The notes under the pieces were generated by a model. The model worked only from the letters and a program-made list of their open reading frames with translations, was not told the origin of the DNA and did no database searches. Positions 31,822 through 63,746 of a stretch of 64,000 nt of DNA are shown here, in pieces (within the stretch, counting starts at the first letter, position 1; every line of letters begins with the position of its first letter). The stretch is from a virus (Duplodnaviria; Caudoviricetes). Location of the stretch: the IMG/VR virus record IMGVR_UViG_3300034073_002120; one strand, given 5' to 3'. The position numbers were made by a program, and so were the translations under genes.

Positions 31822-32658
31822 TTAATTGTTGAATAAATCATCAAATGCTGCTGCAACATCATCGGTTTTCTTAGATACTGCTGGAGCTGATTGAGATGGA
31901 GTTTCTACTGACCCACCCATATCATGAGATACTGATGGTGTTGGTTTTGCTGATGATAAAGTTTCTGCTGCTACTGAACTTTCGGTTTCATCTTCATCAG
32001 ATGTTGCTGATGGGTTCAACCAACCTTCCAATACATTTTTCAATTCTGCATAAGATAATTCTTGATACAATTCAGTAATTTCAGTTTGATTCTCTAAGAA
32101 TTTTGCAATATCACCACCTTCTGCTAATGGTGTTTGATTTGGTTTTACTCTAAGAGTAGTTGTTGGATATGAAGTTCCAGCATCTTCTGCTGAAATATAT
32201 TCAACGGTCAAATCTCTACCTGCCATTGGGTCAGTAATATCACCATAATCGGGGTCAGCAATGTACCCTAAGATTTCTTGATAAACTGTCTTACCGAATC
32301 CCCAAAATTTAACACCTTCGTTTTCTTGACCACGAACGATTACAGGAACAAAGGTTCTCAACTTAGGCTCCATTGCCTTTGCTGCTTTCCAATCTTCCTT
32401 ATCGCCCATTCTTTTAAGTTTATCTGCAAACTCAACAATTGGGTCAGGTCTACCGAATGATGCCGGAGATAGATAAGTTTTGTTATTTACGTTGTAATGA
32501 AAATACAATTCAATGAACGGATTGTCTTTATTGAATTTGTAAGGTACGATACGGACTTGTGATTTACCAGGAGTTGGTTTCCATAATGCATCCGTTTTCT
32601 TTTGTGTGTTTTGTAGTTTGTTTAGTCTACCTCTAATTGCGTTAATGTCTAATGCCAT
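31822..32658 (-). CDS. gp32: Single-stranded DNA-binding protein (T4 gp32-like)
   Basis: Aromatic-rich core (FWGFGKTVY, DITD...GRD), acidic tail ending FDDLFNN. Confidence 0.85.
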   Translation of the reverse strand: MALDINAIRGRLNKLQNTQKKTDALWKPTPGKSQVRIVPYKFNKDNPFIELYFHYNVNNKTYLSPASFGRPDPIVEFADKLKRMGDKEDWKAAKAMEPKLRTFVPVIVRGQENEGVKFWGFGKTVYQEILGYIADPDYGDITDPMAGRDLTVEYISAEDAGTSYPTTTLRVKPNQTPLAEGGDIAKFLENQTEITELYQELSYAELKNVLEGWLNPSATSDEDETESSVAAETLSSAKPTPSVSHDMGGSVETPSQSAPAVSKKTDDVAAAFDDLFNN

Positions 32659-32778
32659 TGTTTTTTCCTTTTAAGTTTAATAATTAATTTGTTTTATGGT
32701 TTTATTTACGAGTCTTTCCTACTCGCGGTGTGTAAGTATAAATATACGAATTTCCGATTTTCGTATATTAATTTTTTA

Positions 32779-33240
32779 TTATTTTGCCCACTTTCCGTTG
32801 GAAACAATTTGAGCTATAATGCCATATACTGATAGGTCTTGAAACGTATCTTCTACTGCTTCACCAACATTATCTTCTTTACCTAAAACTACCAATTGTT
32901 TTAATCTCTGAATTTTATCATTAATTCTAAACCACAAACCTGTTAGGGATAATTTCTTATCATCATCAGTTTCTAATGATGTTCCTACTGCAATGTTTCC
33001 TGGTCCATAATTGGATTGTTTTAGACAGAATAATTCATATTGAGTAAACATAATACGTTTGAACTCATCAGTCATTTCTGGGTATTGTTTTTCGATTTCT
33101 TCTACGATTTTAGGATTATCGTATTTGATGAACGCAACCTCATCTTCGGTTTGTTCTATTTTGGGAGCAATATTGAGTTCTAATTTGTTCTTAGCCTCTT
33201 GCTTAATGATACGAGGAGTTTGTGTTGTGCTCTTTGACAT
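32779..33240 (-). CDS. DUF1599 / nucleotide-modification-associated (Nmad1-like) protein
   Basis: KQSNYG...FRINDKIQRL...EDTFQDLSVYGII pattern. Confidence 0.7.
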   Translation of the reverse strand: MSKSTTQTPRIIKQEAKNKLELNIAPKIEQTEDEVAFIKYDNPKIVEEIEKQYPEMTDEFKRIMFTQYELFCLKQSNYGPGNIAVGTSLETDDDKKLSLTGLWFRINDKIQRLKQLVVLGKEDNVGEAVEDTFQDLSVYGIIAQIVSNGKWAK

Positions 33241-33264
33241 ATAACCTTTATTATTTTTACTTTA

Positions 33265-33296
33265 CAAATATACGAAATATATCTGATAATACCAAA
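33265..33296 (-). promoter_or_regulatory. Bacteroidota sigma-A type promoter
   Basis: TTTG-N20-TATATTTG. Confidence 0.8.
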
Positions 33297-33329
33297 TATA
33301 AAGGGGTGATAAAATACCACCCCCTATAT
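33297..33329 (-). terminator. Terminator-like hairpin after the small lipoprotein
   Basis: ATATAAGGGGTG / CACCCCCTATAT inverted repeat with one G-U pair. Confidence 0.55.
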
Positions 33330-33333
33330 AATT

Positions 33334-33498
33334 TTACTTTACTTCTGCAGAATCTACTTTTACTGCTGCTGAATCAGATGCAACTACTGCTGTGTCTACT
33401 GCCACTACTGTTGAATCTGATGCTACTTCTGATTGTGATTTTGAACCACATGATGTAATCGTTAAAGCGATTACTGCTACTGCGAATAATTTTTTCAT
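33334..33498 (-). CDS. Small lipoprotein (54 aa), below the track cutoff
   Basis: MKKLFAVAVIALTITS-CGSKSQSEVASDSTVVAVDTAVVASDSAAVKVDSAEVK: signal peptide II lipobox, own promoter and terminator. Confidence 0.85.
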   Translation of the reverse strand: MKKLFAVAVIALTITSCGSKSQSEVASDSTVVAVDTAVVASDSAAVKVDSAEVK

Positions 33499-33534: not shown

Positions 33535-33566
33535 CAAATATACGAAAAAAATCCGAACTTTCCAAA
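33535..33566 (-). promoter_or_regulatory. Bacteroidota sigma-A type promoter for the lipoprotein
   Basis: TTTG-N20-TATATTTG. Confidence 0.8.
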
Positions 33567-33567: not shown

Positions 33568-33969
33568 TTATTTTTGAGAATATTCAATTACTTCAAAAAT
33601 TCTTGTACTAATCTTCTTAGTTCCTTCGGTATTTGTAACAATTATAGTGTTACGGAACTTATCCCAATCTACCATAAAGTCCTTATCGGCTTTACCACCA
33701 TTTTCCTCTTTAACCAATTCGTTTAATGCATTGATTGTATAAAGAGTATTCGATTGTTTCTTTCTATGAACCAAAATAGTATCCTTTAATGGAATAGTTG
33801 GTTTGTATTGAGTATCTATATTATATGTAATATATAATTCTTCCAAATTAGCCTTATTTTGTAAGACGTAAATATAGTTATAAACAATATAATATGTTTG
33901 TTTTATTTGTTCTAATGTAGTTTGTAACTCATCTTTTGTTGTAAATGTGCACAATAGTTGTGTCTGCAT
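33568..33969 (-). CDS. Conserved-looking hypothetical phage protein
   Basis: 133 aa, GAGGAG RBS-like element 5 nt upstream. Confidence 0.7.
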   Translation of the reverse strand: MQTQLLCTFTTKDELQTTLEQIKQTYYIVYNYIYVLQNKANLEELYITYNIDTQYKPTIPLKDTILVHRKKQSNTLYTINALNELVKEENGGKADKDFMVDWDKFRNTIIVTNTEGTKKISTRIFEVIEYSQK

Positions 33970-34033
33970 TCTTTCTCCTCTTATTTTATACCTAATAATA
34001 AGTATAAAAAATGAAATCGAAAGACTTATTTTA

Positions 34034-36296: not shown

Positions 36297-36328
36297 CAAA
36301 TATACGAAATATATTTGAATTATCCAAA
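36297..36328 (-). promoter_or_regulatory. Bacteroidota sigma-A type promoter
   Basis: TTTG-N20-TATATTTG. Confidence 0.8.
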
Positions 36329-37976: not shown

Positions 37977-39551
37977 TTAGTATAATCTCTCTATTGAAAT
38001 GAAGTTACTGATGTATGATACACCTATCATTAATGTGATACGATAAAATCTATTATTCGTTTTATCTCGCATCTGATATATCGCAGTATCACCATGTGCT
38101 GCAAAGTTCCAACCAAATGCAGAAGTAGATGCAGTTGTAGTATATGTAATATTATTAGTTGAACCACCACCAGTTGCTCCAGGAACAGAATATACTCCAC
38201 TTATATCTGCTTCAAACGATGTTGATACTGCAGCTATACTCAAACCTCTATTACCACTGGCAGTAACTGTACATTTAAGATTATCTAAAGTTACGAATGT
38301 TCCTACTGCTACCATTCCACTTGATTTCCATATCAATTCACCACCATTTAAATTTGTAGAACCACTAATTACTAATGAACCTGTAATTTCTACTATTCCA
38401 TTATTTTGAACATATAAGTTACTTCCACTTGTCAAATAAAGTGATGAAGTGTTTGCAAGTATTTGAGAACCAATAAATGAACCAGTTGTTATTATCAACG
38501 AACCTGTAATTGTTTGTGTTCCGTTGAATGAGTTTGAACCCGTTGTTATAGTTTGTGCTGATGCGGTAAATGCATTGAATGATGAAGTTGTTGTATAACT
38601 ACCACTAACAAATCCAAATGCACTTATTTGTGCAGAACCACTAATAGTTCCAGCAGGAGTTGTTCCATTTACTACACTACCACTTAATGTATAACGAGTA
38701 TCGTATGAAGATGTTAATTGTGATGAACCGGATACAATACCATTACCCTTTGTTTCATATGAAGATGTTACACTTTCTAATGAACTGATTCGAGCATTGG
38801 ATGATGTGTAGTATGTTGCAAATGCAGTATCATTTGTTAAATCTACTGAATTAATTAAACTAACGATTTCAGCGAATGAATCTTTATCCGCAGTTGATGC
38901 TGATAATATTGCATCTATCCTTCCTTTTTCGGTTGTAATTCTACTATCAAACGATGAACTATCGGTAAAATAAGATGCAGTAAATGAGTTTAAAGATGAT
39001 ATATCAGTAGATTGTGAAACTAACCCAATCGGTTTCCCACTAATATTATCCCAAGTTGTTTGTGTAATAGAACCACTTAAAACGTATCTACTATCATATG
39101 AACTTGTTAATTGTGATGAACCACTAATTGCTCCATTCAACGATGTTAAATAAGAACCTGTATGACTTTCTAAATCATCTAATCTATCTACTAAACTTGC
39201 AGTTGAAATACTTGCAGTATATTCATTGAAAGATGAGGTAGAAACCAAACCTGTATTTTGGGAAACTATACCAATTGTTGCTGCTACTGAACTACTTACA
39301 ATTGAAACTTGTAAATCTGTTGCGAATGTAGAATCTAATGATGAACTCCAACTTTCTAAATTATCGACTCTGGTATCGATACTTTCGGTAAATATATTTA
39401 GGGCACTAATATTAGGTTGAGACCCTGTGATTGCAGAACTTAAATCAGCATAAGTAATCTTTTTAGTTTCGTTATTATTTACGATTACTAAAATATCACT
39501 TCCACTTGGTGATGTATGTGAGTTAAGTTGGGAAATTCTTTTATCCGCCAT
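37977..39551 (-). CDS. Ser/Thr-rich tail fibre-like protein
   Basis: MADKRISQL N-terminus, repeated GxxSGSxQ motifs, heptad-like segments. Confidence 0.65.
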   Translation of the reverse strand: MADKRISQLNSHTSPSGSDILVIVNNNETKKITYADLSSAITGSQPNISALNIFTESIDTRVDNLESWSSSLDSTFATDLQVSIVSSSVAATIGIVSQNTGLVSTSSFNEYTASISTASLVDRLDDLESHTGSYLTSLNGAISGSSQLTSSYDSRYVLSGSITQTTWDNISGKPIGLVSQSTDISSLNSFTASYFTDSSSFDSRITTEKGRIDAILSASTADKDSFAEIVSLINSVDLTNDTAFATYYTSSNARISSLESVTSSYETKGNGIVSGSSQLTSSYDTRYTLSGSVVNGTTPAGTISGSAQISAFGFVSGSYTTTSSFNAFTASAQTITTGSNSFNGTQTITGSLIITTGSFIGSQILANTSSLYLTSGSNLYVQNNGIVEITGSLVISGSTNLNGGELIWKSSGMVAVGTFVTLDNLKCTVTASGNRGLSIAAVSTSFEADISGVYSVPGATGGGSTNNITYTTTASTSAFGWNFAAHGDTAIYQMRDKTNNRFYRITLMIGVSYISNFISIERLY

Positions 39552-39568
39552 AATATTATCCTTCGAAA

Positions 39569-40210
39569 TTATTTAAATTTCAATCCTGTTAATTTTTCAA
39601 TATCCGAAACTAATACTTTGTTATTGTTTATTCCATCTGGTTTAGATAAATCATTCTGAAATAAATACGCGAACCATTCTTTTGTTTTTACTATATAAAC
39701 CACTTTCCAGCATTGTGTCGGAACTGCAACTTTATTTACACCTATTGTTTTAGCAACTCCAATATTTCCAGCCCAGATATGAACTGAATCTTGTTTCACT
39801 GCCCAATTTCGTGTAAGTGTTTCTAATGATTTCCAATCTCCGGCATTTAATCTATGATATTGTGCAGCCATATTAGAATAATAGAAACACTCATCTTGTA
39901 CCGCAGGAGTTTGACATTGATTTGATTTTGCAGGCATTAAATGACCTCTATCCGTTCCACTATTTACATAATCTGCACCAATATTTGTTTCTTTTGGTAA
40001 TAAAGGGTCGGGCTTGAATTTATCTTTACGAGGTAAAGGATTTGGACACCCAACTTTTGCTTTGGTTTCCCACCATTCTACCAATACCGGATATTTTTTT
40101 GATTTTGAAAAGTGTGATGTGTAATTTGTATGTTTTAGAACTACCACATCTTGTGCCTTAAGACCTAAGGCGAAACATAACACTAAAATTAGTGTAAAAA
40201 ATTTTTTCAT
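39569..40210 (-). CDS. Secreted DNA/RNA non-specific endonuclease (NucA / Endonuclease_NS)
   Basis: Signal peptide MKKFFTLILVLCFALGLKA, DRGHLMP active site, FYYSNMAAQ...LN...W. Confidence 0.9.
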   Translation of the reverse strand: MKKFFTLILVLCFALGLKAQDVVVLKHTNYTSHFSKSKKYPVLVEWWETKAKVGCPNPLPRKDKFKPDPLLPKETNIGADYVNSGTDRGHLMPAKSNQCQTPAVQDECFYYSNMAAQYHRLNAGDWKSLETLTRNWAVKQDSVHIWAGNIGVAKTIGVNKVAVPTQCWKVVYIVKTKEWFAYLFQNDLSKPDGINNNKVLVSDIEKLTGLKFK

Positions 40211-40241
40211 ATACTAAATCCTCTCGTTTAGTATATAAATA

Positions 40242-41519
40242 TTAAATTTTTGAGTAATCCATACCCCAACTTGCCTTAATTGGAAATCCAAAACTTTCGA
40301 GCACGGATTTAATCTCCTTTGCCCTCTCCATATCCCAGCTCAAATGGTATTCAAATAAAAATGAATCGTAGGTATACAAGATTGGCAACTCCATCCCACT
40401 TCCTTTTAACTTTTTCAGAACTTCCATATTGAACTCCGTTTCTGTCGCTTGTAAAAGATAGTTGAACACCTTTTGGGGATTCTCACCTTCAATCCAACTT
40501 AGAGGTATTTTTCTTCCCTTTGGGGTTAGGATGTATCCTCTTTGTTGGGATTCGGTATAGACCCGTTGTATGAACTCATCAACCTCCTTAAAGAACGGAA
40601 TTTCTTTATCTTCATCACTCACACCACCATAAAGGATTCGGAATGTTCTTCCTTTAGATTCATCATAAGGACATCCGTATTGGTCTGCTAGCCATTGGTG
40701 TACGGAGGTCTTCGGTAAATCATATCCAATCAACTTACCGATAATACGAACGTGGTATGCATCATAATCGAATTGTAAGAACATCGTACCATCTCGAGGA
40801 ATGAATACTTCTCTCGAACCATCCTTTTTATTCAATGCACCAAAGTTGATACCGCCATGGCGATTGGAGGGACGTGATGTAAGGGTATATGGGTTATACT
40901 CTGTCCAAATAATATCGTTGTGTAGGTGTTTGGAGTTGTGTGGCCATCTATCAAAAAATTTTTCGGTGTCGACGTGGAGGCCCTTTCGTTCCATTTCTGA
41001 AAGGATAGGAATCATCGTTTCATCAATCCACTCCATTTTACCACTTTTCTCTAATAATGGTAAAAATGAGTATTTCTTAATAATACCATTTAATACCTCA
41101 ATCCACTTCATTATAGGGAGTGATTTACCTAAATTATCTCGTAACCCCAAACGAGTATAAAAGTTCGTTATGGGTTCAATTTCGGTGTTTAAATCGATTA
41201 AAGTATTGTATATAAAGAATGATTCCGCTTGTATATCTCTAACGGATTGTAATCCTAAGTTTGTTTGTAAAATTCCTTTTTTATTCCATACCCATTTTGT
41301 TTGTGTAGATTGGGAAAGGTCTATTTGAATGTTCTCGCAATCATTATGGTCAAATGGGATAATATAATCACCATCTTTGAAATGGACATAGAGAAATGAT
41401 AAATGAGTATTCATCGGATGTAAATCCAAATCAGCCCAAATAGGAATGACCATTGAGGATTGATTACCCCAACGGTCTATAAAATCATTTATCTCTTTTT
41501 GAGATTCTACTATAATCAT
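40242..41519 (-). CDS. Minimal family A DNA polymerase-like protein
   Basis: TLTSRPSN, motif A FDYDAYHVR, motif B K...F..LYG, motif C TYDS; only 425 aa. Confidence 0.75.
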   Translation of the reverse strand: MIIVESQKEINDFIDRWGNQSSMVIPIWADLDLHPMNTHLSFLYVHFKDGDYIIPFDHNDCENIQIDLSQSTQTKWVWNKKGILQTNLGLQSVRDIQAESFFIYNTLIDLNTEIEPITNFYTRLGLRDNLGKSLPIMKWIEVLNGIIKKYSFLPLLEKSGKMEWIDETMIPILSEMERKGLHVDTEKFFDRWPHNSKHLHNDIIWTEYNPYTLTSRPSNRHGGINFGALNKKDGSREVFIPRDGTMFLQFDYDAYHVRIIGKLIGYDLPKTSVHQWLADQYGCPYDESKGRTFRILYGGVSDEDKEIPFFKEVDEFIQRVYTESQQRGYILTPKGRKIPLSWIEGENPQKVFNYLLQATETEFNMEVLKKLKGSGMELPILYTYDSFLFEYHLSWDMERAKEIKSVLESFGFPIKASWGMDYSKI

Positions 41520-41523
41520 TCTA

Positions 41524-41555
41524 CAAAGATACGAAATTTATTTTGTATTTCCAAA
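41524..41555 (-). promoter_or_regulatory. Bacteroidota sigma-A type promoter, 4 nt from the ATG
   Basis: TTTG-N20-TATCTTTG-TAGA-ATG. Confidence 0.75.
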
Positions 41556-41936
41556 TTAAAATTGAGCACTACCCGATAAGATATTAGTCTTAATTGAATG
41601 TAATAACTCTACTTCATTTTGAAAGACGGTTTCTTCGAATTCGTTTCGATTTTTTTCAATCGATTCTTCTACCATTTTTAATAACATTTGATGATAGGTG
41701 GTAGTAAATGAATTACTAAGAGTAAATTTGTGATTTGTAATTGTTACTCCAAATTCATCTAAACGAACCCAATACAATAATCTCTTATTTACCATAAAGT
41801 ATTTATGACTAAGAGGTGCAACTTTTAAATCAGTATCTTCTTGTGCACATAAGTTTTTTACAACATCATAGATAAGTTGTTCTTTCTCATTCATCTCATA
41901 CTCTGGAAAGAATTTCTTTTTAATTGCTTTGAACAT
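41556..41936 (-). CDS. Hypothetical protein
   Basis: 126-aa ORF. Confidence 0.65.
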   Translation of the reverse strand: MFKAIKKKFFPEYEMNEKEQLIYDVVKNLCAQEDTDLKVAPLSHKYFMVNKRLLYWVRLDEFGVTITNHKFTLSNSFTTTYHQMLLKMVEESIEKNRNEFEETVFQNEVELLHSIKTNILSGSAQF

Positions 41937-42099
41937 TTTCGTCTTGTTTATCGTTTATCACTAAATATTTATATCCTTTTTCAGTTTCTTTAATTGTACC
42001 CGAATCAATTAGTTTTTGAACTTCCATCACAGCATCTTCTCCTTTCTCCATTGCTTGATGAAACATTAATCCAATTGTATGTTCTATGTAAATTACCAT
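41920..42099 (-). CDS. Hypothetical 59-aa protein, below the track cutoff
   Basis: MVIYIEHTIGLMFHQAMEKGEDAVMEVQKLIDSG...; fills the gap and overlaps both neighbours. Confidence 0.45.
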   Translation of the reverse strand: MVIYIEHTIGLMFHQAMEKGEDAVMEVQKLIDSGTIKETEKGYKYLVINDKQDENVQSN

Positions 42100-42572
42100 A
42101 TTTCAAATCCTCCACAATTTCGTAAGAATTCAATAAATTGTTTGATTCTACCAACTGATGTGGAATGTGATGATTCAACTAACATACCACTTTCAGTTAC
42201 GATTGGTGTATAGTGAATACTTCCATATTCATATTGTTGGTTTAAACTCATATCAACTTCACTACTAATCATTTTACCAGTTCCTGCTTCACACCAACTA
42301 CCTAAACATAGATACACTCTATCATCATCTTGTTTTGCATCAATTTCATTACCTAACAATTCTTCTAATGCATCAGCAAGATTATTACATTCTTCTGCGG
42401 TTTCTAATCCTTTACCATCATTAGACCCCCAATAATCAGTATTGTAATCTAATTTAGAATCGTAGATTGCCATTTGACAAAGATGGTTAATAGGTCTCCA
42501 TCCCCACCAATTAGAACCGAAATAATCACCTGTTTCATTTATTGGGTTTTTACCCGAAATATCTACTCCCAT
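42093..42572 (-). CDS. Hypothetical protein
   Basis: 159 aa, MGVDI...WWGWRP early-gene type sequence. Confidence 0.65.
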   Translation of the reverse strand: MGVDISGKNPINETGDYFGSNWWGWRPINHLCQMAIYDSKLDYNTDYWGSNDGKGLETAEECNNLADALEELLGNEIDAKQDDDRVYLCLGSWCEAGTGKMISSEVDMSLNQQYEYGSIHYTPIVTESGMLVESSHSTSVGRIKQFIEFLRNCGGFEIW

Positions 42573-45562: not shown

Positions 45563-45592
45563 AACTTTTTGTTTGTTTTATATAAATATATA

Positions 45593-51131: not shown

Positions 51132-51133
51132 AT

Positions 51134-53623
51134 TTACGCTCCTAATAATCCAAATCTATTTTGTGAACTTTTTTCTGATGTTTTTACTACTGCAGATGAA
51201 ACTTTTTCTCTATCCATATATACATCTCTATTTTGAGATACTGCCTGTATCATTTCATCCATTTTATTTACTAATGCAGAAATATCAATTCCACCACCAC
51301 CTCCTACTGCATTTGCTAATCCTTGAGGGTTTTTAGTTGCTATTAAATAATCTTCGGGTGATGTAGAAATTACACTACCATTTTGCATTACACCATCGTT
51401 TACACTTTGGGTAGGAGTTTGACCTGCTGATTCCGGTGCACCTCCACCGAAAATTGAACCAACACTTTGAATGACACTACCAATTCCACCTACAAAATTA
51501 TTTATAGGGTCTATTAAATTTTCATGCATCCATTGACCTAAACTTTCAAATATAGTAAAGAATCCTTCTACATAATCCATTATGGTATTAAACATTGCTA
51601 CAAATGGTTTATACATAAATGATAATATACCATCACCTATTTGTGTTAATCCACCTATAAAATCACCTTTAAATAATTTTACAACTCCACCAATTATATC
51701 AAAAACTCCACTAAGTGCGGCAACAACTGTTTCTATTGCAAGAACTACTGGACCATAAAATAATGATGTAATAAATCCAATTACCTCACCAATCTGTTCA
51801 AATATATCAAATAATCCAGTAGATGGGCCCATCAATTTAGATATTGGTGCGAATGCTTTAGATATATGGTCAAATATACTATTTATGATTGTCATAAATG
51901 GTTTTAAGAATCCAACAATTAATCCACCAACTATTTGCATAATTGGTCCTAATGCTTTCATTATTGTCATTCCAATTGGCATGAAAGACATTAATATATC
52001 ATTTCCAATAGCTGCAAGTTGATTACCTGCATTATCGAATTCTGATTGCATTTCTTTTTGTTTTGCTAATTTTTCAGTTTGTACTGCTAAATCTGCGGAA
52101 TTCATTTTACTTATATCACCACCGGTCTTAAGCACTTCCATTGCAGTTGCCAATTCCTTTTCAGATAATTTACCAAATCGTTCTCTAATTCTTTGTTGAT
52201 TTACCAAATCATCATATGACATACCTGTTGCTTTTGCAAGTGCTTCTTGCTCATAGGTATTTAATTTAGATATATCACCAATTGCTGCAACTTCATCTAA
52301 AACTGCTTGCTGTGATTCCAATATCTTTCCATTGGCTGCTAAATAACGTGCCTGACCTAAATTAATATTAGTTCCTAATAATGCACTTGCTTCTAATTCT
52401 GCAGTAATACTATTTTGAAAATCTAATAACCCATCTGCAACTTTACCAGCTTGACCAATTGATGTTCCTAATTTTGCTGCTTGAACTGCTGCTTTAGCAA
52501 GTGCTTCAGGCGAACCATTAAAGTATTTATATGCATATTCGGAATTTTCCGCCATATCTTTAATAACTTGTTGTGGTGCAACATTAGCAAGTTTTGCCAT
52601 TGATACTGTCTGACCAACTAAGTATTGAGATTGTTCTGCGGATAACCCACCTATATTTTGAAATATTTTATTTAATTTAGCACCTTCTTGAACACCTATA
52701 CCAAAGTTTTTATTCAGAGTCATCATAGATGTCAATACTTCATCTGAAGCCATCTCTATACCACCGAATTCATTAGTGAATGTTGCTGCACTTTTTGAAA
52801 TATCTTCTAATGATGCACCCAATGCAGAAGTTTTACCCAACACACTAACCATTTGTTTATCTAATCCAGCAGTTTGTGAATTTAATAAACCAGTTTCTTC
52901 TCTAAATGCTTTTGCTGCTGAGGCTACTTTGTAAAAAGCAAGAACTCCTACTGCTGCTACTGCTGCTATAGCAATTGCTGCTGCTGTATATGGGTTTGAT
53001 AATAATGGACCTAATGTTTTTGATAATTGACCAAATCCGGCAGTCATACCAGATGAAAATGATTTTATAAACCCTTTTTTTTGTTGTAAATTTCTAGTAA
53101 ACATTACACTAAATCCACGTGTAAAATCATTACCCATTTTAGTAATACCACCTTTTATACTATCGTATGGTATTAAACTATCAAATACTTTACCTAATAC
53201 TGGTATTTCCGAAATAGATGATTTTAATGAATCTATAGCATCATTAATACCTTCGGTTACATTTTCTGCAGATGCTGCTACTTGTTTCACAATATCACGT
53301 CTACGCATTTCTATTTGTAGAGCTTGTTGTGCAAATTTATTTTGTTCTAATAATTCTTGTTTTATATCAGAATTAATTCCCCAATTCTGTTTTAATATAG
53401 TACCTTCTCTATTTTTAAGTTTATTTAACGCACCTTGAATATCACCAGTTTCTTCGGTAGTCTTTAAAATAGCAGTTGTTAAATCAACTTCTTTATTTAA
53501 TGCATCAAAATGTCTTTCAGATTGGAGTGCAATAGTATCCATAGCCTTACCAATTGATTTGGTAAGGTATTCCATTTCTTTTAACTCTTGGTTCTGAATT
53601 GAAAATTCTGGTCTTTTTGCCAT
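51134..53623 (-). CDS. Tape measure protein
   Basis: 829 aa, Ala-rich helical with periodic aromatic repeats; located between the chaperone genes and the baseplate. Confidence 0.85.
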   Translation of the reverse strand: MAKRPEFSIQNQELKEMEYLTKSIGKAMDTIALQSERHFDALNKEVDLTTAILKTTEETGDIQGALNKLKNREGTILKQNWGINSDIKQELLEQNKFAQQALQIEMRRRDIVKQVAASAENVTEGINDAIDSLKSSISEIPVLGKVFDSLIPYDSIKGGITKMGNDFTRGFSVMFTRNLQQKKGFIKSFSSGMTAGFGQLSKTLGPLLSNPYTAAAIAIAAVAAVGVLAFYKVASAAKAFREETGLLNSQTAGLDKQMVSVLGKTSALGASLEDISKSAATFTNEFGGIEMASDEVLTSMMTLNKNFGIGVQEGAKLNKIFQNIGGLSAEQSQYLVGQTVSMAKLANVAPQQVIKDMAENSEYAYKYFNGSPEALAKAAVQAAKLGTSIGQAGKVADGLLDFQNSITAELEASALLGTNINLGQARYLAANGKILESQQAVLDEVAAIGDISKLNTYEQEALAKATGMSYDDLVNQQRIRERFGKLSEKELATAMEVLKTGGDISKMNSADLAVQTEKLAKQKEMQSEFDNAGNQLAAIGNDILMSFMPIGMTIMKALGPIMQIVGGLIVGFLKPFMTIINSIFDHISKAFAPISKLMGPSTGLFDIFEQIGEVIGFITSLFYGPVVLAIETVVAALSGVFDIIGGVVKLFKGDFIGGLTQIGDGILSFMYKPFVAMFNTIMDYVEGFFTIFESLGQWMHENLIDPINNFVGGIGSVIQSVGSIFGGGAPESAGQTPTQSVNDGVMQNGSVISTSPEDYLIATKNPQGLANAVGGGGGIDISALVNKMDEMIQAVSQNRDVYMDREKVSSAVVKTSEKSSQNRFGLLGA

Positions 53624-53626
53624 TTA

Positions 53627-53869
53627 TTATAAATACCTCTTTAAATATTGCGGAACTTCAACACCTCGTTCTTCTGCTTTTTTTGCAAAATCTCGAATCT
53701 TATCTAACTCAACATCGGCTGATTTTAAAGCACTTAATAAATTAGTATTATTACTTAATTTATTTTTTAATATTTTTTTAAAAATTGTAGCTAAAAATCC
53801 AACTTCTACTAACTTATGTTTTTTTTGAATTTCTTTAAATAATTTTTTACTATTTTCGGTTATTTTCAT
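53627..53869 (-). CDS. Hypothetical protein (start moved to MKITEN)
   Basis: GGAG 5 nt upstream of the ATG at 53869; late motif at 53890. Confidence 0.65.
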   Translation of the reverse strand: MKITENSKKLFKEIQKKHKLVEVGFLATIFKKILKNKLSNNTNLLSALKSADVELDKIRDFAKKAEERGVEVPQYLKRYL

Positions 53870-53912
53870 GTATTCTCCAATTATACTACTATAAATATAG
53901 AGCATAAAAAAA

Positions 53913-53933: not shown

Positions 53934-54119
53934 ATTTATATTTGGTCCTCTTGCTTGAGTTGTAGGTTTTTGTGCTTTTTTATTATTTTCTACTTCTTTC
54001 TTTTTGGCCTCTATTAACTCATTATAATAAAAGTTTCTTAAATGAACTGGTAATCTATATACATCCATTTGTGTAAATCCATTGCCATAATAACATAATT
54101 CAAAAATTTGTTTATGCAA
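53922..54119 (-). CDS. Tail assembly chaperone C-terminal (T-like) frame, probably reached by frameshift
   Basis: Only a TTG start; the frame is open back to the GGG-T7 run at 54147-54156. Confidence 0.65.
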   Translation of the reverse strand: MHKQIFELCYYGNGFTQMDVYRLPVHLRNFYYNELIEAKKKEVENNKKAQKPTTQARGPNINVRK

Positions 54120-54132
54120 GATGACGGAGTAA

Positions 54133-54891
54133 TTACTCGGCAGGCCAAAAAAACCCTACACCCATCGTAATTGGGCGTACCTCCGTTTCTCCCGTTATTG
54201 GGTTTTCATAATCAAATTCCATCTTAACATCAGGAGTTAAATCTTTTAAATATTCTCTAAAAGCCTTAGTATCTCTAGTTAAGAAACGATTGTTGATAAA
54301 ATCTACAATAGTACGAGAATCAGATTTACCATCTACTGATGTAATCATATAACGATAACGAGTAGTCAATTCAGATGAACCTGCATTTTTATTTAGACGT
54401 TGCATTGCTTTAACATCTGCATCAATTGCTTTCTCATCACCATGTGTAAGTATTTTGAATTCAATTTCCGTATTTGTAGTTGGTGTTTTAAACTTATAAC
54501 GATTATCTCTATTTAATTTATTTACATCAACTTCCTTCGTTTGAACTTTTGATAAATCTACTGAAATTTCTTCGGTTTCACCATCATCGGTTGTAAGTTC
54601 AAATTTATATTGTGAACCATATCCTAAAATACGTGTTGCTAACATAATAGCGTTTTTATCACCTAAAATAATATCATCTACATTAATTGATTTATCAACT
54701 ATGATAGATTCAAATAATTTATCTAATACAATACCTTTTTTAATCAAATTTTGTGAAGTAAGGATTTCTTCTTCCTTAGCTGTCATATATTTGATTTCAA
54801 TTGTACCTTTTGATAATGGATTTGATTCTGGATAGCATTTACCTTCCGATGGTAATGTTATAACTTCTGTTGGAAATGTATTTTCACTCAT
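54133..54891 (-). CDS. Tail assembly chaperone / gp26-like baseplate hub assembly protein
   Basis: EVITLPSEG..YP, YMTAKEEEIL, GD.NAI..A.RILGYG; directly after the tail tube; ends GFFWP. Confidence 0.75.
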   Translation of the reverse strand: MSENTFPTEVITLPSEGKCYPESNPLSKGTIEIKYMTAKEEEILTSQNLIKKGIVLDKLFESIIVDKSINVDDIILGDKNAIMLATRILGYGSQYKFELTTDDGETEEISVDLSKVQTKEVDVNKLNRDNRYKFKTPTTNTEIEFKILTHGDEKAIDADVKAMQRLNKNAGSSELTTRYRYMITSVDGKSDSRTIVDFINNRFLTRDTKAFREYLKDLTPDVKMEFDYENPITGETEVRPITMGVGFFWPAE

Positions 54892-54919
54892 ATTATTAAC
54901 CTTTATTTTGTTATTTGTA

Positions 54920-54928
54920 TATAAATAT
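54920..54928 (-). promoter_or_regulatory. Putative phage late promoter motif ATAYTTATW (representative copy)
   Basis: The same motif lies 15-40 nt upstream of many structural genes: 32737, 40234, 45581, 53890, 55515, 57953, 58314, 59635, 63068, 63738. Confidence 0.55.
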
Positions 54929-54951
54929 ATAATTTACAAAAAGTTATAAAA

Positions 54952-54975
54952 AAAGGAGATATTTCTATCTCCTTT
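54952..54975 (-). terminator. Intrinsic terminator after the tail tube
   Basis: AAAGGAGATA / TATCTCCTTT stem with a 4-nt loop and a T-run. Confidence 0.8.
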
Positions 54976-54999
54976 CTTATTTTTATTCTTAACTTTATA

Positions 55000-55491: not shown

Positions 55492-55547
55492 TTTTATTTT
55501 TCTCCTATTATACTAATAAATATAATGTTTCTCTTTTTTTTAATTTT

Positions 55548-57914: not shown

Positions 57915-58009
57915 TTTATTTACTCCTAATTAAAGTTTTGTAATGATACACATATAAGTATAAATTACTTTTTGTAAAGTGTTATTTTTTAATACGCGTA
58001 ACTATGATA

Positions 58010-58279
58010 TTATTTTTGAATTGGGGTGAATATTCCAGTATTTGGGTCATAATCACCATCTCCATATTTTTCGTTTAACCCTTTGAATAGGGAATCTTCT
58101 TTTGCAACTAATTCAGTATATTTGTTTAATAAGTCAGTTTCGTTTTGTTCTAACTCTTCTAAACGTTTCTTTTTTTCAATCTGAATTTGTCCTAATTGAG
58201 TGAAAACTGAACCAACTTCAAATCTTAAATTGTTGATTTCTTTGATTTCCTCTTCCGTAAACTTAATTTGTTCTTCCAT
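58010..58279 (-). CDS. Small coiled-coil hypothetical protein
   Basis: 89 aa, acidic heptads. Confidence 0.65.
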   Translation of the reverse strand: MEEQIKFTEEEIKEINNLRFEVGSVFTQLGQIQIEKKKRLEELEQNETDLLNKYTELVAKEDSLFKGLNEKYGDGDYDPNTGIFTPIQK

Positions 58280-58348
58280 TTTGATATATTATTTTGATTT
58301 TAATAATTGTATATATAAATATATCAAAAGTTCGGAAACGTAATTTTA

Positions 58349-59617
58349 TTATCTAGTAAATGTTAAACTTGCCCATGTACCTTTAAGACCTTGGTCAATT
58401 GCTCTTACTCTAATATACCATGTACCAGCAGATAATAATGTGTTTACTTCAATATTAGCTTCACTCCATTCAGTATAATCATAAGTAGGAGAACTAAAAT
58501 CAGAATTATTATCTATTTGTATATCGTAAGCAGTAATACCACCAGTTCCTACCGATGATGGTGCAACCCAAGTCACAAACGGAGTTGAATATGTTAAAGA
58601 TGTAGGTGCACCAGGTGCTGCTAAATCAGTATGAGAGTTTCCTCCTTTATTGTGAGTTACATACCCATTTACTAAATAAGTATCTTCTTCTTCAACGTCT
58701 ATCGATATAATTTCAGTTGTTTTAACAATCATTTCATTACTAATAACATCTTTTTCTACCAATACACCACTTTCTTCTCTAATTAATTTATCGTCAGTAG
58801 TAATTCTAAAAATTTCTTTGAATTTATATAACCCATCTTCACCATCTTTTACTAATAATGGGTGTTCTGATGTTGCTGTTATTTCTCCATCGTTTATATC
58901 ATAATATTTAGACGAGAATGAATATATAATATTTTTTATAGTTACATCTTTTTCAGATGCTGATAAAGTTTCGGTATTCCAATTATAAAAATTACCATCA
59001 GAATCCGTAGATAATCCATTTAATGAATATCCTTTTAAAACATCACCTTCATTCAAATCACCTGCTTCAACAATTGTTCCATCTGCTAAAATTACAGGCG
59101 AATCAATTGTCAGACACAATGCAGTAGAGTTTCCATCATATGAATCTACTGAATAAACTGTCTTATCTTTATTTGTATTATATCCTGTTGCATGGTCATT
59201 AAATCCATCATTAAATACAACACGTAATGTATGTGATTGAGCTGCCATTAAAGATGTTTGTGCTGATGGAGATTGTGGATTCATCGTTCCTACTGAAAAA
59301 GTACAACTAATACCACTATTTGTTCCTAATGTAATATATGAACCTGCTGCTACACTCCATGTAAAGTTTGCTGCTCTACTACTAATTCTACCAAAGTTAG
59401 CACCATCTCCACTAAATCCTAATGTATATGTTTCAGTTGTACCCTCTACTGCGTAAGTATAACCACTAATTGAACCAACCGAATCAATAGCAAATGATGA
59501 CATTGCGATTGGACCAGTTGTATTACCTTTTGCTGCAGAAAGAGATTTGGTAGATTGACCAGTAGCAGATGCTAATGAATTTAAACTTAATGTATTTCCG
59601 GATGTTAGTGTTGCCAT
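58349..59617 (-). CDS. Virion protein with a Hint (intein-like) domain and C-terminal FN3 domain
   Basis: CLTIDSPV (block A), TSEHP (block B), YLVNGYVTHN (blocks F/G) at 59116-58649, then PGAPTSL...W...Y.I...WYIRVRA. Confidence 0.8.
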   Translation of the reverse strand: MATLTSGNTLSLNSLASATGQSTKSLSAAKGNTTGPIAMSSFAIDSVGSISGYTYAVEGTTETYTLGFSGDGANFGRISSRAANFTWSVAAGSYITLGTNSGISCTFSVGTMNPQSPSAQTSLMAAQSHTLRVVFNDGFNDHATGYNTNKDKTVYSVDSYDGNSTALCLTIDSPVILADGTIVEAGDLNEGDVLKGYSLNGLSTDSDGNFYNWNTETLSASEKDVTIKNIIYSFSSKYYDINDGEITATSEHPLLVKDGEDGLYKFKEIFRITTDDKLIREESGVLVEKDVISNEMIVKTTEIISIDVEEEDTYLVNGYVTHNKGGNSHTDLAAPGAPTSLTYSTPFVTWVAPSSVGTGGITAYDIQIDNNSDFSSPTYDYTEWSEANIEVNTLLSAGTWYIRVRAIDQGLKGTWASLTFTR

Positions 59618-59626
59618 ATTTTTTTC

Positions 59627-60625
59627 CTATATGTTATAAATATCTAATAAAGATTTAATCCATTTATCTTTATCAGTATAACATTCTTTCATATATTCTT
59701 TTATCTTATTAAACCAAAATAATTTTGTTTCGTAAGATTGCGTTATAATCTCACTATAAATATCATTAAATTCCTTTTTAGATGATACACGATATGGATA
59801 TTCTAAATTAGGACACCAATCTATGTGTATTATAGGTAATTTACCCCTATCTACTGCTTCAAATATAGAATACCCAAATGGTTCTGCTGTAAATGCAGAA
59901 TGTGATATTCCCCAATCCATATCATAAAATTTATCTTTAAATTCTGAATTATAATGATACATCTTAGATTTAGATAAATCTATTTTTACTCCGTTTTTCC
60001 ATAAAATATTAAATTCAAACGAATTTGTAAAAATATATGAAGGCAATTTATCTAAATAATGTGGATTTTTTCTACCTTCACTTCTAGCTGCAAATCCGAT
60101 ACGATTCGATTCTGAAAGTGGTTTGTTATAACAAAATTCATAAAAATTTGGTATATTGGTAGTGGTATATGGAATATTATATAATCCAACCCATATATTA
60201 TAATTAGTCCATTCAGTAACTTGCTGTTCCCATTCAGAACTCATCCACGGATGCCAACCAACCGGAACATCACTCAATACTTGCGATGTTAAAACTCTAT
60301 CTACGGAATTATGAAGTACGTTAGAATGGATTTTATTACTATTATCCACAATTGGTTTCATAGGTGTATAATGACCATGTAAAATGTTAATTCTACGAGC
60401 ACCATTACATAATTCTTCAAATTTTTGAATATCATCACCATGCCAATAAGTTTCAATTGGAAATTGGTAATCTTCGTGGCCTTTTGGTTTGTTTCTATGA
60501 ATTAAAAGAATTGGTTTGACCTCTAATTTAGGTGCAATCAATTCCATCCATAAATTTACCCACATATCAGAACCTGCATTTACCCAAGGTCCACCACCAG
60601 TGGTGTAATAAACATCATAAACCAT
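59627..60625 (-). CDS. GT-B glycosyltransferase within the structural module
   Basis: RKNP and EPFGYSIFEA GT4-like motifs. Confidence 0.7.
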   Translation of the reverse strand: MVYDVYYTTGGGPWVNAGSDMWVNLWMELIAPKLEVKPILLIHRNKPKGHEDYQFPIETYWHGDDIQKFEELCNGARRINILHGHYTPMKPIVDNSNKIHSNVLHNSVDRVLTSQVLSDVPVGWHPWMSSEWEQQVTEWTNYNIWVGLYNIPYTTTNIPNFYEFCYNKPLSESNRIGFAARSEGRKNPHYLDKLPSYIFTNSFEFNILWKNGVKIDLSKSKMYHYNSEFKDKFYDMDWGISHSAFTAEPFGYSIFEAVDRGKLPIIHIDWCPNLEYPYRVSSKKEFNDIYSEIITQSYETKLFWFNKIKEYMKECYTDKDKWIKSLLDIYNI

Positions 60626-61365: not shown

Positions 61366-61409
61366 ATGTATGACTTATCGATTTCATTATATAATTACTT
61401 AAATTAGAA

Positions 61410-61427
61410 ACTCCTTATATAAGGAGT
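61410..61427. promoter_or_regulatory. Perfect 18-bp intergenic palindrome
   Basis: ACTCCTTATATAAGGAGT between two fibre genes. Confidence 0.5.
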
Positions 61428-61433
61428 GTTGGA

Positions 61434-63038
61434 TTATAATCCGTTTTCTAATTTATTAATTCTGTTTGTTAATTCTTCTATTTGTGATTGTTGTTCTTTT
61501 ATACCTTCAATCAATAAAGCAACTAACTTATCATATTTAACTGCTTTATATCCACTCTCACGAGTTTGAACTAATTGTGGAAGAACCTCTTCGATTTCCT
61601 GAGCAATTACACCTACATCATTTCCTTCATATCCGTGCTCAATTTTATTTTCTTCTTTCCAATCATATGTGTAACCACCAATTTTAGTAATTTTATTTAA
61701 TGGTGATTCAATTGGTTTGATATTATCTTTAAATCTTCTATCAGATGATGAGTATGCAACGATGTCGTTTGTAGCATCAATTCTACCAGATGTACCACTT
61801 GCAGCCATTCCAATTCCTAATGAACCAAATTGTACGTTTGCTGATGTACCACCACCAGTTGTAGATGATAATACCACTTGAGATGAACCACTAATTGTAC
61901 CAGATGGTAAAATAGCAGTTACACTACCAGCAGTGACTGTTCCTATTGTTGTAATCGAATCATCACCACTATATGTTCCACCTGCAACTGCAGCTAATGT
62001 AGAGTTGTATGCTTGAACGTTAGTACCGATAGCAAGACCTAAATTAGTTCTAGCTGCTGATACATCAGTTAAATCTGATAAATTAGATGCTTTTGATAAT
62101 TTACCATCAACTAATGTAGTTAATGTAGAATCACCACTTGCAAGTGAAGCTGAAATTTCTAATAAAGTATCAAACGCAGCACTAGCACCACCAATCAAAT
62201 CAGTTAATTCTTGTTGAACGTATGCAGTTGTTGCAATTTGTGTTGAATTCGTATTTGCAGTTGCGGTTGGTGCAGTTGGTGTTCCTGTCAACTCAGCATT
62301 GGTAAACATAGTTGCCTTACTCTCATTTGTAACATTACCTAAACCTACTTGAGTAGCAGTTACAGAGTGTGGGTTTGATGTGTTAGAAATGTGAGAAGAT
62401 ATTGTTGAATAATTTGTAGTTGCAGTTACATCAATTTGTGATGAACCAGAAACTACACCTAATGAATTATTGTATGCTAAAACATTCAAGTCAAAGTTTG
62501 TAATAGTATCTGCGTTTACTTGAGTAGAACCACTAATTACACCTAATGAGTTGTTATATGCTAAAACGTTAGAATCAAAATTAGTAATTGAATCTGCGTT
62601 TATTTGTGATGAACCCGAAACAATACCACTACCATTTGTAATCGTTGCTAATGTAATAGAACCACCTAATGAGGTAGATGTTCCTGCGATTGTTATTGAT
62701 TTATTAGTAATTGCAGTTCCGTCTACTTGTGACGAACCACTAATAGTTCCGATTGGTAAAAGAGATGTTACTTGTGCAGAAGATGATACAATACCATCAC
62801 CACCAGTATTTAAGTATCTAGCATCAAAATCGGTTGTAAGTTGAGATGAACCTGAGATAATTCCAGTTCCACCAAATGTCAATCCACTACCATTACCACT
62901 AAATGTTCCACCTGTAAATGATGCACCTTGATATGAACCACTAAATGACCCACTATATACACTACCTTGTGGTAAAGTAATTGTTGCACCATTTGCGAAC
63001 GTTAGTGAACCTGAAACTATTGGACTATGTATTATCAT
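61434..63038 (-). CDS. Tail fibre with C-terminal peptidase S74 intramolecular chaperone
   Basis: SSDRRFKDNI...GVIAQEIEEVLP...VKYDKL..LLIEGIKE; GxxSGSSQ repeats. Confidence 0.88.
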   Translation of the reverse strand: MIIHSPIVSGSLTFANGATITLPQGSVYSGSFSGSYQGASFTGGTFSGNGSGLTFGGTGIISGSSQLTTDFDARYLNTGGDGIVSSSAQVTSLLPIGTISGSSQVDGTAITNKSITIAGTSTSLGGSITLATITNGSGIVSGSSQINADSITNFDSNVLAYNNSLGVISGSTQVNADTITNFDLNVLAYNNSLGVVSGSSQIDVTATTNYSTISSHISNTSNPHSVTATQVGLGNVTNESKATMFTNAELTGTPTAPTATANTNSTQIATTAYVQQELTDLIGGASAAFDTLLEISASLASGDSTLTTLVDGKLSKASNLSDLTDVSAARTNLGLAIGTNVQAYNSTLAAVAGGTYSGDDSITTIGTVTAGSVTAILPSGTISGSSQVVLSSTTGGGTSANVQFGSLGIGMAASGTSGRIDATNDIVAYSSSDRRFKDNIKPIESPLNKITKIGGYTYDWKEENKIEHGYEGNDVGVIAQEIEEVLPQLVQTRESGYKAVKYDKLVALLIEGIKEQQSQIEELTNRINKLENGL

Positions 63039-63083
63039 CTCTTTTTTCCTTAATTATTTTAACTTATAATAAATATATATTTT

Positions 63084-63722
63084 TTAAATAGAACCTCCGT
63101 CTATTTGTGTTATTGTTGTTGCGTTTGCAGTTCCTGTCACATCACCATTTAATGTAATTTGTGCAGAACCACTAAATACTCCTAAAACATTCACTTGATT
63201 TGTTACAGCAGTATCTAATCCACTAATGTTATTTGAATCAATTGAACCACTAACTATATGACCACCTTTTGCTACAACTACATATCCACTTTGAGCAGAT
63301 GATAATGTAATTGTTATGGTATTATCATCAGTATGTCTTAGTGATGTTGGAATAATTTGATACCCGTCTGAATCATAAACTTGTGCAATTGCGTTTGGAG
63401 TATCTAAATTATGATTTACAACCCATGTAGATGAATTGGTAAATGAACGTTGAACTGTTGCATTTTGAGATACTGATATACCAGTCAATCTACTACCATC
63501 ACCTACAAATGCAGATGCAGTAATAGCACCACTTAAATTTATCGAACCAGTTATTGGATTAGAGGTGTTAGTTGCAACTAATTCTTGTATAGTATCGTTT
63601 CCTTTTTTGAAAAAAACTTTACCATCAGTAACGTTCATAGCAATTTCACCATATTCCAACGAACCAGTAGCGGGAACTGCCCCACTTGTAGTGGAACGTT
63701 TAAATTTAATGATTTGTGCCAT
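63084..63722 (-). CDS. Fibre adaptor / virion protein, paralogue of 60631-61365
   Basis: MAQIIKFKR...LEYGEIAMN..DGKVFF; NHNL domain. Confidence 0.65.
   Translation of the reverse strand: MAQIIKFKRSTTSGAVPATGSLEYGEIAMNVTDGKVFFKKGNDTIQELVATNTSNPITGSINLSGAITASAFVGDGSRLTGISVSQNATVQRSFTNSSTWVVNHNLDTPNAIAQVYDSDGYQIIPTSLRHTDDNTITITLSSAQSGYVVVAKGGHIVSGSIDSNNISGLDTAVTNQVNVLGVFSGSAQITLNGDVTGTANATTITQIDGGSI
63214..63290. repeat. 77-bp direct repeat, copy 2
   Basis: Matches 60851-60927. Confidence 0.9.
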
Positions 63723-63746
63723 AATCTATGTGTTTACTATAAGTAT

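Follow-up and report, generated by a model that had tools for sequence, protein, structure and literature searches.

Shine–Dalgarno elements in a freshwater T4-like myovirus

We analyzed a 64,000-nucleotide (nt) stretch of the virus record IMGVR_UViG_3300034073_002120, hereafter the window, in which a defined subset of genes is preceded by Shine–Dalgarno (SD) elements. The window is a piece of a T4-like freshwater myovirus of ~290 kb whose genes all lie on one strand; every real gene in it is on the minus strand, and the GC content is 31–33%. Family searches recovered T4-like myovirus content (tail fibres, baseplate parts, sheath, and tube) together with genes for replication and metabolism, namely a gp32-like ssb, UvsX, a DnaB-like helicase, ribonucleotide reductase (RNR), thioredoxin, a family-B DNA polymerase, and a clamp loader. 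GroEL, a PD-(D/E)XK nuclease, and a secreted-type Endonuclease_NS are also encoded. No tRNA genes or Rfam families were found in the window, and megablast with 20 kb of it gave no match among GenBank phages. Its relatives in IMG/VR number in the hundreds, and all counts for relatives given below are drawn from IMG/VR loci and from nine complete or nearly complete genomes. Among the latter, G001 is a complete 287-kb relative with a DnaB identity of 96%.

The nearest cellular relatives of the phage GroEL (66–74%) belong to Cytophagales (Flexithrix, Algoriphagus, Aquirufa), Sphingobacteriales, and Flavobacteriales, and the promoter type described below is Bacteroidota-like. A preliminary description of this DNA had assumed a Flavobacterium-type host. 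With GroEL matches that span three orders, this label is too specific, while the SD-poor character that it implied is true of all these classes: in no Bacteroidetes class do strong SDs reach 2% of genes (Jha et al. 2021, PMC7797042).

We scored 71 curated starts, counting as an SD any duplex with the 16S tail of −4.5 kcal/mol or stronger. This strength is reached at 17 of the 71 starts, and 11 reach −6 kcal/mol or stronger; shuffles of the leaders lead one to expect 7.2 and 3.3, respectively (P<0.001), so that the excess over local composition is ~2.4-fold (17 vs 7.2). The nine SD-like sites listed in the preliminary description are all present on the minus strand, with spacers exactly as given there. 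Duplex energies run from −4.5 to −11 kcal/mol, and the cores (AGGAG, GAGGAG, and GGAGG) are complementary to the CCUCC core of the 16S rRNA 3' tail. The signal forms a sharp peak of 8-mers starting at −16 to −11, with both flanks depleted or empty. In raw terms, starts (24%) are on a par with random coding positions (20%), which makes the signal positional: it stands out relative to very G-poor leaders rather than as a bulk excess.

In 157 unique leaders, the core lies 8.1 ± 2.6 nt from the ATG, and 88% of the spacings fall within 5–10 nt. The distance from the SD to the late-type promoter core described below ranges over 1–26 nt and is even greater at the sheath gene, which ties the SD element to the start codon and not to the promoter. 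Complementarity and spacing are both as expected if the element pairs with the ribosomal anti-SD.

Conservation was assessed at orthologous starts from 251 loci, using unique upstream sequences only and energy-based scoring. The distribution across genes (named here by their start coordinates where no function is given) is bimodal. Thirteen genes keep their SD across diverged relatives while the flanks diverge: tube (96% of 51), thioredoxin (90% of 30), sheath (89% of 46), 53869 (83%; 15/15 family members), 33969 (80% of 25), 40210 (71%), 39551 (67% of 6), 59617 (52% of 21, with TAGGA(A/G) retained), and 51131 (47% of 17), as well as 63038 (4/4), 29605 (9/9), 42099 (4/4), and 20721 (7/7), where all relatives' copies have it. 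The conservation at 20721 is ambiguous because the motif lies in the coding sequence of the upstream gene. The thioredoxin SD appears in relatives as AAGGA, TAGGAG, or AGGAGG. In an alignment of 76 sheath loci, (A)AGGAG is fixed 8–9 nt before the ATG, a second conserved element, TTATAYTTATAT, stands ~40–50 nt before it, and the sequence between the two varies.

Other sites did not persist. The ssb site reported in the preliminary description is present as claimed, yet only 32% of 40 unique relatives retain it, and the SD-like sites at DnaB (14%), 53623, 14283, and 12275 are likewise not conserved. No relative has an SD at 58279 (0/32), at 54891 (0/40), or at the genes for UvsX and both RNR subunits, and GroEL has one in 15%. 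Column-wise conservation profiles, which we also tried, were blurred by 1-nt shifts in spacing and added nothing to the energy-based test. The observation is thus real and far from chance: a defined subset of genes bears genuine, selected SD elements of the form (A)AGGAG, 5–10 nt before the ATG.

Promoter-like signals and the distribution of SD elements

Two promoter-like signals recur in the window. One, the rigid TTTGG-N20-TATNTTTG (TTTGG-N20-TAT(A/C)TTTG), has nine sense-strand copies, all of them intergenic and 4–45 nt before an ATG, and three chance matches on the antisense strand. Its two elements stand upstream of genes at a spacing of ~19–21 nt, in what we take to be the Bacteroidota sigma-A architecture (−33 TTTG / −7 TAnnTTTG consensus). 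At 41519–41555, the ATG is only 4 nt past the −7 box, an arrangement conserved in relatives. The mRNA of this 425-aa gene, like those of the G001 genes with the same arrangement at 17781, 65915, and 127948, is therefore probably leaderless or nearly so.

The other signal is ATAYTTAT, an AT-rich octamer specific to the phage, found 26 times in sense and 5 times in antisense orientation in the window (75 vs 25 in G001). It lies 24–47 nt before 13 starts, including those of sheath, tube, hub, and fibres, and is conserved in relatives. We call it late because of the virion genes that it precedes. T4 late promoters are gp55-dependent and have the sequence TATAAATA. As in T4, the presumptive late signal here is a single AT-rich, strand-specific element without a −35 box before virion genes, in a T4-like genome with UvsX, gp32, a gp43-type polymerase, and a clamp loader. 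It differs in reading ATAYTTAT rather than TATAAATA, a comparison of motifs only, as gp55 and gp33 homologues were not searched for. A second difference is that T4, whose host reads SDs, has them on all gene classes; a translational tier linked to promoter class is not a T4 feature. Hairpin terminators at 54949–54978 and 53913–53933 flank short late units, and the position of the first of these after the tube gene makes the tube unit a single gene.

SD elements are distributed unequally between the two classes. None of the nine first genes behind sigma-A-type promoters reaches −4.5 kcal/mol, as the preliminary description had claimed for such genes, compared with 6/12 promoter-proximal late genes (p=0.019). 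In G001, 15/36 late first genes have an SD versus 0/15 of the sigma-A type (p=0.002, Fisher) and 52/322 of all other genes (p=0.001); the corresponding expectations from shuffles are 3.45, 0.61, and 27.8. Across the two complete close relatives, G001 and G002, SDs are found on 42–44% of late-type and 0–5% of sigma-A-type first genes. The preliminary description had named as its refuting outcome a lack of difference in SD strength between the classes once composition is controlled for. When each gene was ranked against shuffles of its own leader, late and sigma-A genes remained apart (Mann–Whitney p=0.005 in G001 and 0.0005 in G002), with the sigma-A class at the neutral median. The contrast is therefore an enrichment of the late class and not a depletion of the sigma-A class, in which 0.61 were expected and 0 observed.

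Over whole transcription units, the difference is about two-fold in G001 (late 47/191 vs sigma-A 19/146, p=0.0085) and in G002 (p=0.001). In the window, the clean contrast is thus limited to promoter-proximal genes; in G001 and G002, it extends to whole units. The strongest SDs of G001 are those of the capsid protein, prohead protease, adaptor, and neighboring head genes, the first three having TAAGGAGAG-type sites. SDs are accordingly concentrated directly behind the late-type signal, above all on abundant virion proteins (sheath and tube in the window; capsid protein, prohead protease, and adaptor in G001). The late genes of the window without an SD are the hub-like gene, a tail-fibre-like gene (63722), and small ORFs of unknown function.

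The preliminary description had proposed two translational tiers, with SDs on late genes and none on genes with host-type promoters. The late enrichment and the absence of SDs from sigma-A first genes bear this out; the division is nevertheless not one of late versus early, with only ~42–44% of late-type first genes carrying an SD. Nor are SDs confined to late genes, for thioredoxin and other non-late genes keep conserved ones, and sigma-A-started units in the window are as SD-rich as late units. We found no paper that reports a partitioning of SDs in phages of Bacteroidota. New here are the late-type promoter signal, the ortholog conservation test, the composition-controlled class test, and the ortholog-level contrasts between sister lineages.

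Table 1. Genes, leaders, promoter-like signals, and terminators of the window (aa, amino acids; ORF, open reading frame; spacers in nt)
Feature	Positions	Strand	Details
Late-type genes and leaders
Tail sheath gene, 788 aa	55548..57914	-	PHROG 23 tail sheath, E 1.6e-72
Sheath leader	57915..57963	-	late core ATACTTAT 57954-57961; AGGAG 57923-57927, spacer 8
Tail tube gene, 163 aa	55000..55491	-	PHROG 4542 tail tube, E 4e-28
Tube leader	55492..55525	-	late core ATATTTAT 55516-55523; AGGAG 55502-55506, spacer 10
Hairpin and T-run terminator 3' of tube gene	54949..54978	-	
80-aa ORF, start 53869	53627..53898	-	GGAG 53875-53878, spacer 5; late core 53891-53898
Terminator before 80-aa ORF 53869	53913-53933	-	
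133-aa ORF, start 33969, function unknown	33568..34005	-	GAGGAG 33975-33980, spacer 5; late core ATACTTAT 33998-34005
422-aa virion protein gene, start 59617	58349..59643	-	AGGA 59625-59628, spacer 7; late core 59636-59643
Tail-fibre/baseplate gene, 534 aa, start 63038	61434..63076	-	AGGA 63047-63050, spacer 8; late core 63069-63076
Endonuclease_NS gene, start 40210	39569..40242	-	Pfam PF01223, E 2.8e-37; GAGG 40220-40223, spacer 9; late core 40235-40242
89-aa ORF, start 58279	58010..58322	-	late core 58315-58322; no SD, 0/32 unique relatives with SD; breaks the rule
Baseplate-hub-like gene, start 54891	54133..54928	-	PHROG 150; late core 54921-54928; no SD, 0/40 relatives with SD
257-aa ORF, start 45562	44789..45589	-	late core 45582-45589; no SD, 0/6 relatives with SD
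Other genes with SD or SD-like sites
524-aa ORF, start 39551	37977..39563	-	no promoter motif; AAGGA 39559-39563, spacer 7
gp32-like ssb gene, start 32658	31822..32670	-	PHROG 1192; AAGGA 32666-32670, spacer 7
Thioredoxin gene after RNR genes, start 24898	24635..24911	-	non-late; Pfam PF00085; AAGGA 24907-24911, spacer 8
57-aa ORF before DnaB, start 29605	29432..29616	-	GGAG 29613-29616, spacer 7
59-aa ORF, start 42099	41920..42113	-	GGAGG 42109-42113, spacer 9
PLP-fold enzyme gene, start 20721	19882..20738	-	GGAGGAGGA 20730-20738, within end of upstream gene
785-aa tail-module ORF, start 51131	48774..51143	-	AGGAG 51139-51143, spacer 7, at upstream gene's end
Sigma-A-type promoters
425-aa gene	41524..41555	-	TTTGG-N20-TATCTTTG; ATG 4 nt downstream
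746-aa gene, start 36274	36297..36328	-	A-rich leader, no SD
54-aa lipoprotein-like ORF, start 33498	33535..33566	-	no SD
153-aa DUF1599 gene, start 33240	33265..33296	-	only AAAGG (-3.8)
79-aa ORF, start 24414	24434..24465	-	no SD
237-aa gene, start 15000	15034..15065	-	no SD
GroEL gene, 7285-8904	8925..8956	-	A-rich leader, no SD; SD-like in only 15% of 53 relatives
69-aa ORF, start 5707	5726..5757	-	no SD
PD-(D/E)XK (Cas4-like) nuclease gene, 1596-2453	2473..2504	-	no SD

Lineage differences, phage bS21, and competing explanations

We ran one pipeline on the nine complete or nearly complete relatives. Among late-proximal genes, SDs are frequent in G001 (15/36), G002 (19/43), G007 (6/31), and G009 (10/29) and rare or absent in G003 (1/32), G004 (0/31), G006 (2/29), G008 (0/9), and G010 (0/44). 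In the tree of 22 proteins, ((G010,(G001,G002)),(G007,(G004,(G003,G006)))) plus (G008,G009), each SD-rich lineage thus has an SD-poor sister. When orthologs with the same N-terminus are compared, 33 G001 genes have an SD and only 3 of these also have one in G003. Paired ortholog tests separate G001 from G003 (1.4e-6), G001 from G010 (0.0015), G007 from G004 (0.013), and G009 from G008 (1e-4), while G001 and G002 are symmetric. SD use is a genome-wide trait of a lineage, and the sister orthologs lost the sites or never had them. As gene order and both promoter signals are common to the sisters, the determinant of SD use acts in trans. G009 (IMGVR_UViG_3300028394_000036, L318-L326) has SD-like sites on 40% of all its starts and a short bS21 with Arg at the position of Tyr54.

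The preliminary description had suggested a search for a bS21 (rpsU) homologue in the rest of the genome. Searched for in close relatives of the window, a homologue is present in several, including G001. With a Pfam model, bS21 was found in G001, G002, G004, G007, and G009 and not found in the complete genomes G003, G006, G008, and G010. It is encoded by all four SD-rich complete genomes, and SDs are scarce in each of the four complete genomes without it. In G001, the gene (267613–267915) lies 1.3 kb before the capsid gene (269237). In both G001 and G002, the bS21 leader contains a late core and lacks an SD. In an alignment with a solved Bacteroidota-type bS21 (chain 9i5v_9), the proteins of G001, G002, G004, G007, and G009 have Arg at the Tyr54 position, and those of G001, G002, G007, and G009 have no aromatic residue at positions 52–62. 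The bS21 tails have a median of 47 aa and a charge of +11 at SD-rich loci, compared with 20 aa and +6 at SD-poor loci. The bS21 of G004 is short and host-like, with aromatic residues near its C-terminus, and the nearest sisters of this genome, G003 and G006, lost bS21 at the same site.

We surveyed bS21 type at 136 capsid loci with enough upstream sequence. SD-rich loci make up 27/30 of those with a non-aromatic bS21 (positions 52–62), 9/58 of those with the aromatic type, and 8/48 of those in which no bS21 was found. The raw association of the aromatic residue with SD use is strong (Fisher 1e-12); as a predictor, however, the residue does not survive a phylogenetically independent test and loses its value in distant clades. 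The presence or absence of bS21 near the capsid gene is uninformative across the 136 loci, and calls of absence in fragments are soft because the phmmer screen missed divergent copies that the Pfam model found. The link between bS21 and SDs is based on a small number of independent evolutionary events and is not without exceptions, and a further new point of this work is the caution that the correlation of bS21 type with SD use is not yet phylogenetically supported.

Known systems provide partial parallels. The large freshwater phages of Chen et al. 2022 (ISME Commun, PMC9723584) are myoviruses that carry bS21 beside the capsid protein, prohead protease, and portal and express it with late structural genes, a layout shared by the window's relatives. 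These authors proposed that phage bS21 enters host ribosomes and favors phage messages; finding that every one of their 61 phage bS21 had an aromatic residue, whether Tyr54 or a different one, they concluded that its function is host-like. SD usage was not analyzed there, whereas the close relatives studied here have Arg at the Tyr54 position, a long basic tail, and a class- and lineage-specific SD regime in their genes. In Flavobacterium johnsoniae, bS21 with Y54A or a deleted tail raises translation of SD-led reporters 3–5 fold in viable cells (McNutt et al. 2023, PMC9976891). The autoregulation of rpsU in this species (PMC7797042, PMC9976891) resembles the proposed phage system in combining an SD-blind ribosome pool with a minority free-anti-SD pool that favors rare SD-led messages. 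It differs in that the host target is one gene, with a strong extended SD on the bS21 gene itself, and the signal is bS21 loss; here, dozens of phage genes are concerned, the bS21 gene has no SD, and the proposed trigger is the gain of a variant bS21. In Francisella (PMC9578407), swapping bS21 versions changes mRNA selection by otherwise identical ribosomes, as is proposed here; the paralogues described are cellular and chromosomal, with neither anti-SD sequestration nor a virus involved.

Taken together, these observations lead us to favor, at somewhat less than even confidence, a phage-made change in ribosome preference that benefits those late messages that are SD-led and in high demand; the leading candidate for its agent is the variant bS21. 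The sequence of events would begin with host ribosomes, their anti-SD hidden under bS21, bS18, and bS6, translating SD-less early messages. Late in infection, the phage would make its own bS21 from a gene with a late-type promoter and no SD, whose product has Arg in place of Tyr54 and ends in a long, highly basic tail. This protein might exchange into 30S subunits and free the anti-SD, in the manner of the Y54A and tail-deletion mutants of F. johnsoniae, whereupon SD-led, high-demand late messages would outcompete host and early ones. SD-less late genes would then encode low-copy products in need of no boost. The specific version, that a non-masking phage bS21 (Arg for Tyr54, long basic tail) turns SD-blind Bacteroidota ribosomes into SD readers late and so opens a private channel for the most abundant virion proteins, with SD sites and bS21 gained or lost together several times among sister lineages, we hold possible with slightly greater reserve. 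The interpretation given in the preliminary description is in this sense partly supported, late unmasking of the anti-SD being its hypothetical part.

Several results weigh against a late ribosome switch driven by bS21. The bS21 gene is outside the window and was read only in relatives, and the capsid tree has only ~7 changes of bS21 type and ~9 changes of SD regime, giving an independent-pairs sign test with p about 1 (no power). G004 (IMGVR_UViG_3300043395_000996, L356-L364) keeps a bS21 with Arg at the Tyr54 equivalent and has no SD enrichment, and the distant SD-rich loci L408, L435, and L439 keep Tyr54. In G009, SDs also stand behind sigma-A-type promoters (9/13), a misfit with a purely late switch. 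The label "late" itself is drawn from the genes that the motif precedes. Whole units do not differ within the window (late 9/36 vs sigma-A 7/33), nor does the sigma-A class show any depletion once its own composition is taken into account. Over half of the late-type first genes are SD-less, an absence that is conserved at 58279 and 54891; at the level of families, 10/33 late-proximal families are SD-led and 20/33 SD-free. Finally, conserved SDs occur on genes without a late signal (thioredoxin 24898, 29605, 42099, and 39551).

Some of these points would be accommodated if the host decided the matter, with SD-rich lineages infecting hosts (Bacteroidota or other) that read SDs at least partly, SD-poor sisters infecting strictly SD-blind ones, and bS21 merely co-varying to fit the host ribosome. 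A host shift would give the genome-wide flips between lineages, and the abundance of SDs in G009, including those behind its sigma-A-type promoters, is consistent with this explanation, as is a bS21 correlation that is phylogenetically not significant; GroEL points to Cytophagales as much as to Flavobacteriales, so that the host is not pinned down. We nevertheless consider a host-set regime unlikely, given the rarity of strong SDs in every Bacteroidetes class (PMC7797042) and the pattern in the window's own lineage, which lacks SDs on sigma-A-proximal early genes (0/9, 0/15, and 1/19) and has them on ~18% of genes, unlike a phage of an SD-using host. SD-led messages could instead use ribosomes that lack bS21, that is, immature 30S subunits or subunits depleted of bS21 after host shut-off or through targeted loss of the host protein, as in rpsU autoregulation. 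Unlocking would then be independent of what is special about the phage bS21. The bS21-free ribosomes of F. johnsoniae do initiate faster on SD-led mRNA (PMC9976891), and both the SD-less G004 with its Arg type and the distant SD-rich loci with Tyr54 indicate that bS21 type is no clean predictor. What makes us doubt this route is that the four bS21-free complete genomes are SD-poor and the four SD-rich ones encode bS21, whereas bS21-free phages could use SDs if loss of host bS21 sufficed; moreover, extra late bS21 would refill ribosomes rather than empty them, unless the phage copy is non-masking.

The remaining alternatives concern the element itself. It might not be read by ribosomes but serve as a signal of late transcripts, whether as part of the promoter or initiation region, as an RNA-stability element, or as a target of a phage regulator. 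It is found together with the late signal, and in several leaders (tube, 53869, and 33969) TAGGAG follows the late core by 1–10 nt together with a TATAAT-like box. Its fixed distance from the ATG, set against the variable one from the promoter, its match to the anti-SD core, and its occurrence at promoter-less internal genes (24898, 29605, and 42099) render such a role very unlikely. It is still harder to credit chance, by which purine-rich, A-rich leaders would yield AGGA or GGAG by accident: the similar raw frequencies at starts and at random coding positions and the lack of conservation of weaker sites (ssb, DnaB, 12275, and 14283) are what accident would give, but the shuffles, the positional peak with its empty flanks, the 80–96% conservation at sheath, tube, and 33969, and the lack of sites in sister lineages with the same leader composition are not. 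Chance is refuted for the 13 conserved sites and stands for the unconserved ones.

To our knowledge, bS21 is the ribosomal protein most commonly encoded by viruses, with its function still open, and the hidden anti-SD of Bacteroidota is a recent discovery for which we know of one physiological use, the autoregulation of rpsU. A conserved, class-specific, and lineage-switchable set of SDs is the missing cis-element for the idea that phage bS21 reprograms ribosomes, which is directly testable with existing F. johnsoniae reporters and mutants. If this idea holds, it would provide a clear example of a virus that makes specialized ribosomes to privilege its late messages. If the host range determines SD use instead, SD content would offer an inexpensive way to tell, from the genomes of uncultured phages, which type of ribosome their hosts have.

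Individual leaders and genes

The ssb leader (32670–32760, ~90 nt) contains a hybrid box, GTATATTTATAC, which can be read as a sigma-A −7 box with a G->A change or as a late core, and is followed by a small hairpin; it may represent a third, "middle" promoter class. For a 66-aa ORF (1532–1590), a −7-like box, TATATTTG, and a late core stand in tandem with no TTTG −33 element at the standard spacing, and the leader is purine-rich (GAGAGAGAAAGAG). The 160-nt gap before the RNR operon (27930–28074) has neither promoter motif. The DNA/RNA non-specific endonuclease (PF01223) is encoded in the replication region behind a late signal and an SD and has a signal-peptide- or lipoprotein-like N-terminus, features suggesting that it may be a late, exported nuclease. 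The G001 GroEL is 59% identical to that of G002 and 83% to that of G003, while other core proteins show the reverse. In view of this conflict between the GroEL tree and the genome tree, an exchange of GroEL between phage lineages seems to have taken place.

Logan contigs that are 85–95% identical to the sheath and tube region (53600–58400) occur in four freshwater metatranscriptome libraries, each from a different study; by this likeness, we assign the contigs to relatives and not to the phage of the window. They show that sheath and tube sequences of relatives are represented in RNA libraries; they give neither starts, strand, nor levels, and gaps in their cover are uninformative. The contig of one relative ends at ~57951, just past the sheath late core, which provides a weak hint of a transcription start.

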